A stretch of DNA of 64,000 nucleotides, from the NCBI GenBank assembly GCA_003151815.1, contig PLYN01000040.1, forward strand, positions 5,859-69,858. Reading direction: 5' to 3'. A program made the position numbers and the translations under genes. Shown piece by piece: positions 36,946 to 38,618 of the stretch (position 1 is the stretch's first letter; each line of letters begins with the position of its first letter). This DNA comes from Bacteroidota bacterium. GTDB taxonomy: Bacteria > Bacteroidota > Bacteroidia > 2-12-FULL-35-15. The notes under the pieces are model-generated. The model was given only the letters and a program-made list of their open reading frames with translations, was not told the DNA's origin and did not search any database.

Positions 36946-37018
36946 TGCGGGGTGGAGCAGTTGGTAGCTCGTTGGGCTCATAACCCAAAGGTCATCGGTT
37001 CGAGTCCGGTCCCCGCTA
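36946..37018 (+). tRNA. Initiator tRNA-fMet (anticodon CAT at 36979-36981), no encoded CCA
   Basis: Hand-folded cloverleaf. Acceptor TGCGGGG/CCCCGCT; D stem GAGC/GCTC (A11:U24); anticodon stem TTGGG/CCCAA with three G:C pairs next to the loop CTCATAA; T arm ATCGG-TTCGAGT-CCGGT. Near-identical core to E. coli tRNA-fMet. Confidence 0.85.
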
Positions 37019-38618
37019 CTTCTAAGGACGGCAACGGAAAATTTCTGTTGCCGTTTTTTATTTCCCCCTCCTTAAATCCTGATATAGTGTTGGTTATATG
37101 AAATACGAGGTTTACTTTTTTGGTTAGATATTCTCTTTTTTTAACATCTATGACTATGCCATTTGGAAAGACCGTTTCCTGAATTCGTTTCTTTGTCGCT
37201 AAATCATTAAACATCCAGTATTTGGTAATGTTTGACACCAAATCTTTAGATAAATCAATGTAGTTATTTAGGTTAGATATTTTTACATTCCCGTTTCCCA
37301 TATTTTTTACGATTCCGCTAATTTTGCCATCAATCTCGCTTTTCACTTCTTCATATATCTCTTTATCTAATTCTCCTAAAGCATATTTTTTTTTAATGTT
37401 TTTTAAATCACTCTCTTGTTTGTTTAATTCTTTTTGCAAACCTTTTTCTTCTTCTACTTTTTCGGAATTTAGTGTTTCATAAGTAAGTTTTAATTGCTCT
37501 CCAAATAGGCTTTCTAACTCTTTTGGTAATTGATAGTCTTTTAAAAAGTTTGTAAATAAATTGTGTGCACCATCCCCTTTCGCCCGTCGGGTAGTATTAG
37601 CATTTATCGTAATGCCTAAACACATTTGGCATTTGTAATAATGCACTTTTTTCTTTTTAACTTCATAACCTGTTAATTTACCACCGCATTCAGAACAATG
37701 TATAAAAGCGTTCAATGGTCTTGCAGGATTTGCTTTATCTTGTTTAAAACCAAAATTATTATCTTTTAAAATTTCTTGCACTTCAAAAAAATCAGATTTT
37801 GAAACCATTTTAGTCCAGTTCCCTTTTACAGGTTCATCTAACATTTTATTTACACTTACCCCACAATAAAATGGCTTTCTCCACATAGTACTTAATTTTT
37901 GTTTACTGATATTAACACCCATTGCAAAGAGTTTGGCGCGGATTTCAAAATCTTTATTTCCTTCCAGTTTCCATTTCCACGCTTGGCGTAGTTTCTCACC
38001 TACTTCATTGATTTTAATTTCTTGTTTCTCGCTATACAAATTTCTGTTTTTTACTCTTGTACCATACATTGTATAACCTATCGGAACCGTTCCCAACCAA
38101 CCACCATTTTTTAATAGGCTTTTCATGCCCGGTATAGTTACCTTCAACCTATCAATATTTTCCTGACTTGCTTTGATTAAACTATTGAATATTTCTAATT
38201 TTCCTTGTTCTGTAATAGTGTTTTTTCCTGTGGATACTTCAATTAAATTTACTCCTAAAGCTTCAATGACTTCATGAGCCAATGATATTCCACTACCACC
38301 TGTACGAGAGAAACGGCTCATTGTGTATATCAAAATTGCAAACGGTCTTTTCTTTGCATCCCTAATTTCCTGAATTAATTTAGAAAACTCTTTGCGAGTG
38401 AAATCGCCACTTGCGCTTTCATAAGTGCCACCAAAGGTGCTTGTTATATTGTAATCATTTTCTTTCGCATACTTATACCCTGAATCCTTTTGGTTTTGTA
38501 AACTTTTATTTACTTCTTGGTCTTTTGAAGATACACGAGTGTACAGCCAAACATCGTTGTTTTGTTTTCTTTCTTCTTTTGATTTATTTACAAATGATTT
38601 AAAGATGTCCAGTTCCAT
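36978..38618 (-). CDS. Large serine recombinase (integrase)
   Basis: Catalytic LYTRVSSKDQ; resolvase core; recombinase domain; Zn-ribbon CSECGGKL...YYKCQMC; C-terminal coiled coil. The last ~27 codons are antisense to the tRNA terminator and the tRNA 3' half. Confidence 0.85.
   Translation of the reverse strand: MELDIFKSFVNKSKEERKQNNDVWLYTRVSSKDQEVNKSLQNQKDSGYKYAKENDYNITSTFGGTYESASGDFTRKEFSKLIQEIRDAKKRPFAILIYTMSRFSRTGGSGISLAHEVIEALGVNLIEVSTGKNTITEQGKLEIFNSLIKASQENIDRLKVTIPGMKSLLKNGGWLGTVPIGYTMYGTRVKNRNLYSEKQEIKINEVGEKLRQAWKWKLEGNKDFEIRAKLFAMGVNISKQKLSTMWRKPFYCGVSVNKMLDEPVKGNWTKMVSKSDFFEVQEILKDNNFGFKQDKANPARPLNAFIHCSECGGKLTGYEVKKKKVHYYKCQMCLGITINANTTRRAKGDGAHNLFTNFLKDYQLPKELESLFGEQLKLTYETLNSEKVEEEKGLQKELNKQESDLKNIKKKYALGELDKEIYEEVKSEIDGKISGIVKNMGNGNVKISNLNNYIDLSKDLVSNITKYWMFNDLATKKRIQETVFPNGIVIDVKKREYLTKKVNLVFHITNTISGFKEGEIKNGNRNFPLPSLEVAGTGLEPMTFGL
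37028..37060 (+). terminator. Rho-independent terminator of the tRNA
   Basis: acggcaac / gttgccgt stem followed by tttttta ttt. Confidence 0.7.

Follow-up and report, generated by a model that had tools for sequence, protein, structure and literature searches.

What ends the reading frame of a recombinase that carries no stop codon of its own? This question is raised by a 64,000-nucleotide (nt) stretch of a Bacteroidota bacterium (Bacteroidia; 2-12-FULL-35-15; assembly GCA_003151815.1, contig PLYN01000040.1, positions 5,859 to 69,858 of the forward strand), hereafter the window, in which the open reading frame (ORF) of a 546-amino-acid (aa) large serine recombinase (LSR) runs antisense into the gene of an initiator tRNA. 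Insertion at tRNA genes is commonly ascribed to tyrosine integrases. We consider it very probable that the LSR has inserted a 19.25-kb defence island at the extreme 3′ end of this initiator tRNA gene, and that the attachment (att) site lies within the last codons of the LSR itself.

The LSR is the outermost gene of the island (Table 1), reads outward, and has no stop codon within the element; in the integrated state, it ends in KNGNRNFPLPSLEVAGTGLEPMTFGL followed by a stop. According to the original prediction, the ORF passes antisense through a terminator hairpin into tRNA-fMet, and this is borne out by the ORF list and by ARAGORN, which identifies tRNA-Met(CAT) on the plus strand. The hallmarks of an initiator can be read in the tRNA sequence: three G:C pairs close the anticodon stem, A11 pairs with U24, and U1 and U72 are mismatched. 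The hairpin, when folded, lies inside the ORF at approximately residues 521–532, and the tail of the ORF is indeed antisense to this tRNA-side terminator. Residues 1–533 are encoded by element DNA (37020–38618), V534 by the att core, and residues 535–546 and the stop by the antisense strand of the tRNA (AGTGLEPMTFGL). The reverse complement of 36978–37019 supplies the final 13 codons and the stop, as had been claimed for the 3′ half of the tRNA, and the TGA is the complement of T33-C34-A35 in the anticodon loop, where it covers the first two anticodon bases.

Comparisons of the sequence and of its predicted structure confirm that the 546-aa protein is an LSR. Pfam places the Resolvase domain (PF00239) at residues 25–141 (E = 1.4e-12) and the Recombinase domain (PF07508) at residues 208–287 (21.9 bits against a cutoff of 21.1). 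The segment YTRVSSKDQ fits the nucleophile motif R-x-S-S/T-x-x-Q, and Y26, R28, S30, and Q34 are invariant among 41 homologues. Zinc-ribbon matches at residues 302–341 are weak and fall under the Pfam cutoff; the zinc-ribbon cysteines C308, C311, and C330 are invariant in the same homologues and C333 is nearly so. An AlphaFold2 (AF2) model has long helices at residues 366–443, so that both a recombinase domain and a zinc ribbon with a coiled coil are present. In Foldseek comparisons, this model resembles the full-length serine integrases 9dxd, 9rah, 9iu2, and 4kis (E from 1e-15 to 1e-8), and the PDB entries 3guv and 3bvp match the catalytic domain. A PHROG integrase model spans residues 12–508, and both Pfam and PHROG homology end near residue 508. 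With the 41 homologues, AF2 predicts the body of the protein confidently up to the end of the last helix at residue 514, where the conserved fold also approximately ends, whereas residues 515–546 have a pLDDT below 50 and are predicted to be disordered. Membership in this family predicts recombination of attP with attB through a 2-bp staggered cut. A scan of IMG/VR returned no relatives of the LSR, and the phage records of GenBank contained only distant ones (22–28% identity).

The location of the junction can be determined from relatives that lack the island. We scanned GTDB genomes with the neighboring Era protein (close matches, 79–92% identity) and found a tRNA-fMet that is 100% identical, beside era and without an LSR, in at least seven relatives, including the loci L012, L016, L017, L020, L021, L024, and L026, whereas locus L003 bears the same island with an LSR that is 89% identical. 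The empty sites match the window only through CCCCGCTAC (position 37019) and then continue into a different hairpin terminator of their own, e.g., TACAAAGCGATTCAGAAATGAGTCGCTTTTTTT, in the layout CTAC-(TAC)AAAG-hairpin-T-run. The region upstream of 36946, which holds the tRNA promoter, is chromosomal and conserved in the empty sites. Because the identity ends at 37019, the tRNA is chromosomal and the hairpin at 37024–37058 is element DNA. The original prediction had offered the alternative that the element itself carries both the 3′ half of the tRNA and the terminator; the terminator hairpin does belong to the element, and the tRNA half does not.

Apart from CTAC, no sequence is common to attL, attR, every attP form, and the empty attB sites. 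In the window, attL and attR share only GCTAC (37015–37019 and 56269–56273), and no long direct repeats flank the element, as is found at LSR att sites. The crossover dinucleotide is expected to lie within CTAC; since TA is a palindrome, CT or AC is the likelier pair. A search of the window with the 30-nt end of the tRNA, allowing up to 3 mismatches, returned a single match and therefore no second copy of the 3′ half. The repeat search of the window likewise turned up neither a displaced piece of the tRNA nor long direct repeats, an outcome to be expected of an LSR, and there is no tRNA 3′ fragment of the Islander type at the distal end. No tyrosine recombinase was found on the island, and the LSR is the only recombinase found beside the tRNA.

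Contigs in which the related LSR runs into something other than a tRNA provide the second line of evidence. The contigs L001, L086, and L087 contain no tRNA, and these three and L173 share only CTAC with the tRNA before they diverge. In L001, L086, and L087, the same hairpin and 7 nt are followed by GTAG-N17-TCKAACC, whereas the tRNA antisense strand reads GTAG-N12-TCGAACC. TCKAACC thereby occupies positions 22–28 in four attP-type arms (L001, L086, L087, and a hybrid site in L025) as against positions 17–23 in the tRNA, and the 22–28 spacing recurs in the P arm of the window (TCAAACA) and in L173 (TCTAACA). In a cryo-electron microscopy structure of the phiC31 integrase, the zinc-ribbon domain binds at ±17–27 of attP and 5 bp closer to the center at attB (bioRxiv 10.1101/2025.05.02.651858). 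By analogy, the 5-bp offset of the distal motif, compared here on only one arm of each att site and with the domain assignment taken from phiC31, matches the attP/attB geometry of LSRs, and TCGAACC is presumed to be the zinc-ribbon motif of the B arm. Because the offset is that between attP and attB of phiC31, we read the forms with the longer tail as attP.

These contigs also bear on the possibility that the element brings its own tRNA 3′ half and terminator in the manner of tyrosine integrases, with a crossover further 5′ (e.g., in the T-loop or the anticodon loop) and an ORF that excision leaves unchanged. The hairpin is in fact element DNA, and the TCKAACC of the attP forms could be read as a degenerate remnant of a tRNA. 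However, CTAC is all that the attP forms have in common with the tRNA, and the stretch from the core to TCKAACC is unrelated to the tRNA, is 5 nt longer, and could not rebuild an acceptor or T stem. Moreover, a displaced tRNA fragment is missing from the far end of the island, and the attR arm of the window runs into attP-type rather than tRNA sequence. The element lacks the tRNA 3′ half and has only a core of 4–5 bp and a T-loop-like TCKAACC motif. We regard this possibility as extremely improbable.

The other end of the island was located with the P arm of L001. The pattern GTTNGATATAG-N12-CTAC has one match in the window, at 56247–56273 on the plus strand, with 0.00 expected by chance. This attR is intergenic and is followed by AAAG and a strong terminator hairpin, the same layout as in the empty sites. 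The island therefore extends over 37020–56273, approximately 19.25 kb. When 56273 is joined to 37020, the rebuilt attP contains a 560-aa ORF whose tail is VALDPAISNNFIRDLQAIVDFKKFARI followed by a stop. This tail aligns with 13 observed attP-form tails that share V-x5-[IL]SN-x4-D, the closest being that of the homologue P0123 (VALRPTISNNFISDFEAIVDFKKLVLQI). The contig that encodes P0123, L173, comes from an unrelated metagenome; its alignment continues unbroken through the rebuilt joint and for 69 nt past it, and beyond the joint it appears better conserved than in the 3′ coding region of the LSR. Nothing else, in our view, speaks as strongly as this continuity for the existence in nature of an attP that joins the two ends of the window island. 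On these sequences, the predicted excision joint is GGGTCGAGGGCTAC joined to TTCTAAGGACGG and the predicted empty site is CCCCGCTAC joined to AAAGCCAAAAGG. The core of attP, which encodes V534, thus falls within the integrase coding sequence, as in integrases of the Mx8 IntP type.

It could be argued instead that the contigs with alternative tails are related elements inserted in a second chromosomal target that is not a tRNA, and that the match at 56247–56273 arose by chance. The contigs are short metagenomic pieces whose topology is not established, and the genes on their far side differ between L001 and L086/L087. Differing neighbors are also what would be expected if the cargo next to attP varies between mosaic elements. 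A match that is unique in the window is difficult to reconcile with chance, and the far end of the window, once joined to the LSR end, reproduces the same tail and aligns at the DNA level with L173 across the joint. This explanation seems scarcely credible to us. Together with the empty sites that match as far as 37019, the attP forms, attR, and the rebuilt tail support the prediction that the attL junction lies inside the recombinase frame, and on this sequence evidence the C-terminus should differ between the integrated and the excised states.

Several points nevertheless weigh against the reading of the island as an LSR insertion with attP inside the integrase gene. The evidence for attP comes from related elements with 50–77% LSR identity and not from the window's own element. 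Neither its own attP nor an empty attB joint was seen in the Logan contigs (approximately 3x depth), and no island-free sibling with the right flank of the window was found, so that the attB of the window is reconstructed and not observed. Furthermore, in four runs of the source sample the Logan contigs leave the window at 56260, within the P arm. Past this position, 13 nt short of where the core ends, they continue into unrelated sequence, AAACGTCTATTCACAGAATACTCAGAGCAA; they may represent a related element that shares a conserved 70-nt block. Other searches were also negative. The 80 metagenome loci with the old-yellow-enzyme gene (56615–57685 in the window) showed no synteny with a tRNA, and exact-protein look-ups of Era and of the old-yellow-enzyme yielded no contig other than the source contig. 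A tblastn search of the window with the alternative tails produced nothing above noise, and the attR of locus L170 (83% LSR identity) was sought and not located.

A homologue search returned 671 proteins; the best 120 (47–89% identity) were listed, and a search with a tail profile added 21, so that 141 were inspected. The few named sources among the listed homologues are Flavobacterium, Chitinophagales, Crocinitomicaceae, and Sphingobacteriaceae. Most of the inspected proteins (103 of 141) end in VAGxGxEPxTFGL and a stop, i.e., the tRNA-fMet 3′ half read in antisense to the anticodon loop, which supplies the final xGL and stop. Fourteen end in VAGG or VAGE and a stop, 13 have the longer attP-type tail V-x5-[IL]SN-x4-D, and 11 are truncated or otherwise different. 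The VAGE/VAGG class arises where a variant T-arm, with the antisense GTA GCG GGA GAG TGA, gives an earlier stop (L083–L085), and in P0127, with CCATAA in the anticodon loop, the ORF reads on through the whole tRNA. Since the end shifts with the tRNA in these cases, the stop position of the LSR is, on the sequences compared, set by the tRNA and not by the element. The 538-aa forms in L083, L084, and L085 had also been considered as attP forms; this was rejected because they adjoin a tRNA-fMet variant with an in-frame antisense TGA.

Other endings were seen as well. The tails of P0072, P0112, P0035, P0124, and P0132 resemble antisense readings of different tRNAs or of sites that have been altered; examples of odd tails are GFEPATLRV and a stop, DEGTRTPTP, and VAGTVRATxYCNLTISP, and P0072 and P0112 resemble different tRNAs. 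The LSR family may therefore target more than tRNA-fMet.

The simplest objection to our reading is that the recombinase really ends before the hairpin, that the open frame is due to chance, and that the junction has nothing to do with the gene. The disorder predicted from residue 515 onward and the end of Pfam and PHROG homology near residue 508 would agree with such an accidental extension, as would the few homologues (P0009 and P0032) that stop earlier, and the residues encoded by the tRNA change along with its sequence and are in some cases shortened to VAGE and a stop. However, 130 of the 141 proteins have no stop before the att core, although the approximately 20 codons that precede the hairpin are AT-rich and their residues poorly conserved. 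Over the same stretch the spacing is fixed, with exactly 50 residues from the YLTKKVN motif to the C-terminus in 97 of the 104 homologues with a tRNA tail, and the same frame is open across attP in 13 independent attP forms with a common tail motif. Because of these three observations, the lack of an element-internal stop is, on the sequences inspected, a conserved feature of the family. The homologues do not end upstream of 37061, and the island-free sites are not identical to the window through 37060, whereas both would have been expected of an accident. We consider an accidental extension of the whole tail quite improbable; only the tRNA-derived residues look accidental.

The hairpin between the LSR body and the core also appears to be under constraint. 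It has a folding energy of −20.7 kcal/mol (z = −5.6; core stem 37028–37053), a T-run follows on the tRNA strand, and it occupies the same place in the attP forms. Its position, 7 nt from the core, makes it part of the P′ arm. In an alignment from the core outward of 14 sequences, comprising integrated copies, scars, and attP forms, the consensus hairpin has 12 pairs, and compensatory double changes occur in 10 of them, so that the structure is kept while the sequence drifts. We infer that the hairpin is a substitute intrinsic terminator for the tRNA, replacing the native one that the insertion displaced, and it probably protects the LSR gene as well, by stopping antisense read-through from the tRNA promoter.

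Traces of LSR elements were also found in three other loci. In the relatives L004 (5698–5831) and L014 (5461–5645), only the last 34–51 LSR codons are left next to tRNA-fMet; judged by sequence, these are attL scars in which the element-derived hairpin has been kept as the terminator of the tRNA. In L025 (regions 3157–3420 and 4196–5877), a second att core at 3378 adjoins a hairpin, GTAG-N17-TCGAACC with the attP-type spacing, and a decayed C-terminal fragment of an LSR. This arrangement suggests that a minimal element of approximately 2.4 kb (the LSR and 0.8 kb) was inserted between the tRNA and an older element. Its target would then be a tRNA with a resident hairpin, an attL-like site, which would be unusual for an LSR.

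The junctions, the anatomy of attP, attB, attL, and attR, the family pattern, and the covarying hairpin can be read directly from the sequences, and they suggest the following mechanism. The LSR would read the T-arm and acceptor strand of the tRNA as its B arm, with TCGAACC 17–23 nt from the core, and a P arm in which TCKAACC stands 5 bp further out. Strand exchange inside CTAC would leave the sequence of the mature tRNA unchanged, so that no tRNA fragment would need to be carried or duplicated. Integration would part the tRNA from its own terminator, for which the hairpin and T-run of the element, immediately after the core, would substitute. In the integrated state, the ORF would enter the antisense strand of the tRNA and end at the first stop, here the TGA of the anticodon loop, giving 546 aa; in the excised state, it would enter the other end of the island and give 560 aa with the tail ALDPAISNNFIRDLQAIVDFKKFARI. 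The swapped tail thus comprises 12 residues when integrated and 26 when excised.

Whether either tail has a role is a separate question. The tRNA-encoded tail is most likely an unselected by-product; selection at the level of the protein cannot act on the residues derived from the tRNA, and they are shortened in some lineages. The frame that stays open as far as the core would mean either that the attP-form tail is functional or that the DNA constraints of the P arm and the hairpin leave no room for a stop. It is also conceivable, but in our opinion unlikely, that the missing stop has been selected because it allows the LSR to sense its state. A conserved tail (V-x5-ISN-x4-D and a weakly helical segment) would then be produced only from the circular attP form, and integration would swap in the tRNA-antisense peptide and thereby alter activity, stability, or directionality. 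Such an LSR would be the serine-recombinase counterpart of Mx8 IntP/IntX, and the tail swap would replace or complement a recombination directionality factor from within the enzyme itself. Structure prediction did not yield a confident fold for either the integrated or the attP form of the tail: in the attP form P0004, the AF2 pLDDT is below 50 across almost all of residues 513–565, with two weakly predicted helices.

On its gene content, the island is an integrative defence island (Table 1). The LSR, a 92-aa ORF whose product is a candidate directionality factor, and a MerR-like helix-turn-helix (HTH) gene form a module that is common to L170 and L003; this module is all that L170 shares with the island, and its positions 8666–11781 correspond to 36825–39947 of the window at 79% identity. 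A small ORF overlaps the start of the LSR in all loci examined. In the cargo region, the type I methyltransferase gene is probably truncated, since its product covers only the first half of the model. A 48-nt direct repeat (55099–55146 and 56170–56217; 92% identical) flanks the EamA transporter gene; the second of the two copies lies just inside attR and overlaps the codons with which the LSR tail ends in the attP form.

Table 1. Features of the tRNA-fMet locus and of the inserted island, in window coordinates.
Feature	Coordinates	Strand	Basis or remarks
Initiator tRNA-Met(CAT), chromosomal; T-arm and acceptor 3′ strand presumed B arm of attB/attL	36946–37019	+	ARAGORN, relatives
LSR ORF, integrated state, 546 aa	36978–38618	−	ORF list, Pfam, PHROG, homologues, AF2 model
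GGTTCGA, T-stem/loop; on the LSR strand TCGAACC at 17–23 from the G of GTAG	36997–37003	+	Motif comparison
attL core CTAC (here GCTAC from 37015), tRNA positions 71–74	37016–37019		Common to attL, attR, attP forms, and empty attB
Element-borne hairpin and T-run, P′ arm of attP	37024–37058	+	Folding, attP forms, covariation
LSR-upstream module: 92-aa ORF overlapping LSR start (38599–38877) and 300-aa MerR-like HTH (38986–39888)	38599–39888	−	Pfam MerR_1
Island cargo region	40173–56129		Pfam, PADLOC
134-aa ORF	within 40173–56129		
TmtA/Tiamat, 1522 aa	40726–45294		Full-length PADLOC match, E = 0
Type I methyltransferase fragment, 375 aa	45512–46639		Covers first half of 857-position model
PDC-M23B/HamB-like helicase, 1040 aa, resembles Hachiman HamB	46685–49807		Pfam, PADLOC
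PDC-M23A, paired with PDC-M23B	49810–50643		PADLOC
PRiA4_ORF3	51682–52308		Pfam
Apparent Xre-type HTH ORF	~53440–53650		Called as 70-aa gene in L169, Pfam HTH_3/HTH_31
Split HipA: Couple_hipA/HipA-N (109 aa) and HipA_C (334 aa), adjacent ORFs	53682–55016		Pfam
EamA transporter	55212–56129		Pfam
Alternative LSR C-terminus, predicted for excised form: V534 and ALDPAISNNFIRDLQAIVDFKKFARI, stop	56190–56273	−	Reconstruction, 13 attP-form tails, L173
attR: P arm GTTTGATATAG-N12 and core CTAC (56270–56273)	56247–56273	+	L001 pattern, L173 alignment
Displaced native tRNA terminator (B′ side of attB), at present 19 kb distant from its tRNA	56287–56319	+	Terminator scan; −23.8 kcal/mol, z = −4.9

Two observations concern the chromosomal side of the tRNA. 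A promoter motif of the Bacteroidota type, TTTG-N20-TATCTTTG, lies at 36840–36875, approximately 70 nt upstream of the tRNA, in a 55-nt block that is conserved in relatives, including L170, in which the neighboring gene is not era; L014 contains two copies of this block. In addition, the gene order of the window (34551–36820) is der(−) era(−) tRNA(+), whereas several island-free relatives (L016, L017, L020, and L024) have era(−) tRNA(+) der(+), which suggests that the DNA beside the integration hotspot has been rearranged locally.

If our reading is correct, a family of Bacteroidota LSRs that routinely targets tRNA genes (671 search matches, 141 inspected) is a large exception to the rule that ties tRNA genes to tyrosine integrases. 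Tools that rely on the signature of a tRNA fragment will miss such islands, and automated gene calling will give the integrases a spurious C-terminus made of tRNA antisense. The B arm of attB consists of the almost invariant T-arm and acceptor of the initiator tRNA, which makes these LSRs candidates for broad-host integration tools in Bacteroidota. The conserved open frame across attP also raises the question of whether being integrated or excised can act back on a serine integrase by way of its own C-terminus.

Integration by LSRs, the targeting of tRNA genes, and integrase ORFs that extend across attP are each known already; a limited literature search returned no description of this Bacteroidota LSR family, of an attP lying within an LSR ORF, or of a replacement terminator supplied by the element. 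The original prediction described a tRNA target as less expected for a serine recombinase; according to the Islander paper, integrases of the serine family are not known to target tRNA genes (PMC4383910). According to a review of integrative and mobilizable elements, those with serine recombinases insert within genes and disrupt them (PMC5704250). The only serine-recombinase element assigned to tRNA-Met that our limited search returned is the Paracoccus phage vB_PamS_Pami6, for which integration in tRNA-Met is predicted (PMC6536676); it is an alphaproteobacterial siphovirus.

The phage-type serine integrases phiC31, Bxb1, A118/LI, and TP901-1 have the same domain order as the LSR, i.e., a resolvase N-terminal domain, a recombinase domain, and a zinc ribbon with an inserted coiled coil. 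They likewise use short att sites that share only a few base pairs at the crossover, with the distal motif 5 bp nearer the center in attB. However, the LSR has only 13–17% sequence identity with the serine integrases of known structure and, unlike them, an extra helical and beta region at approximately residues 450–514. Its target is the 3′ end of a tRNA gene, whereas theirs lies within a protein-coding gene or in intergenic DNA, and here attP lies inside the integrase ORF and the P′ arm is a terminator hairpin. The host is a member of the Bacteroidota, and the element is a defence island and not a phage.

The myxophage Mx8 targets a tRNA gene. The integrase ORFs of Mx8 and SSV extend across attP (PMC4383910), and integration alters the integrase in Mx8 and splits it in SSV1 (Tojo et al., 1996, as cited in PMC4383910). 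The frame of the LSR crosses attP in the same manner, and integration would likewise change the protein, but the Mx8 and SSV1 enzymes are tyrosine recombinases with long identity segments, whereas here a serine recombinase would act on a core of 4–5 bp. The tRNA islands of tyrosine integrases, such as the P4-like islands and NBU1/NBU2 of Bacteroides, which bear the Islander signature, also occupy the 3′ end of a tRNA gene, leave the tRNA intact, place the integrase beside it, and carry defence and toxin-antitoxin cargo. The island described here lacks both a tyrosine integrase and the direct repeat that a displaced tRNA fragment would form. Tyrosine islands preserve the tRNA with a spare 3′ half; in this island, the tRNA would be preserved by a crossover at its last nucleotides together with a spare terminator.

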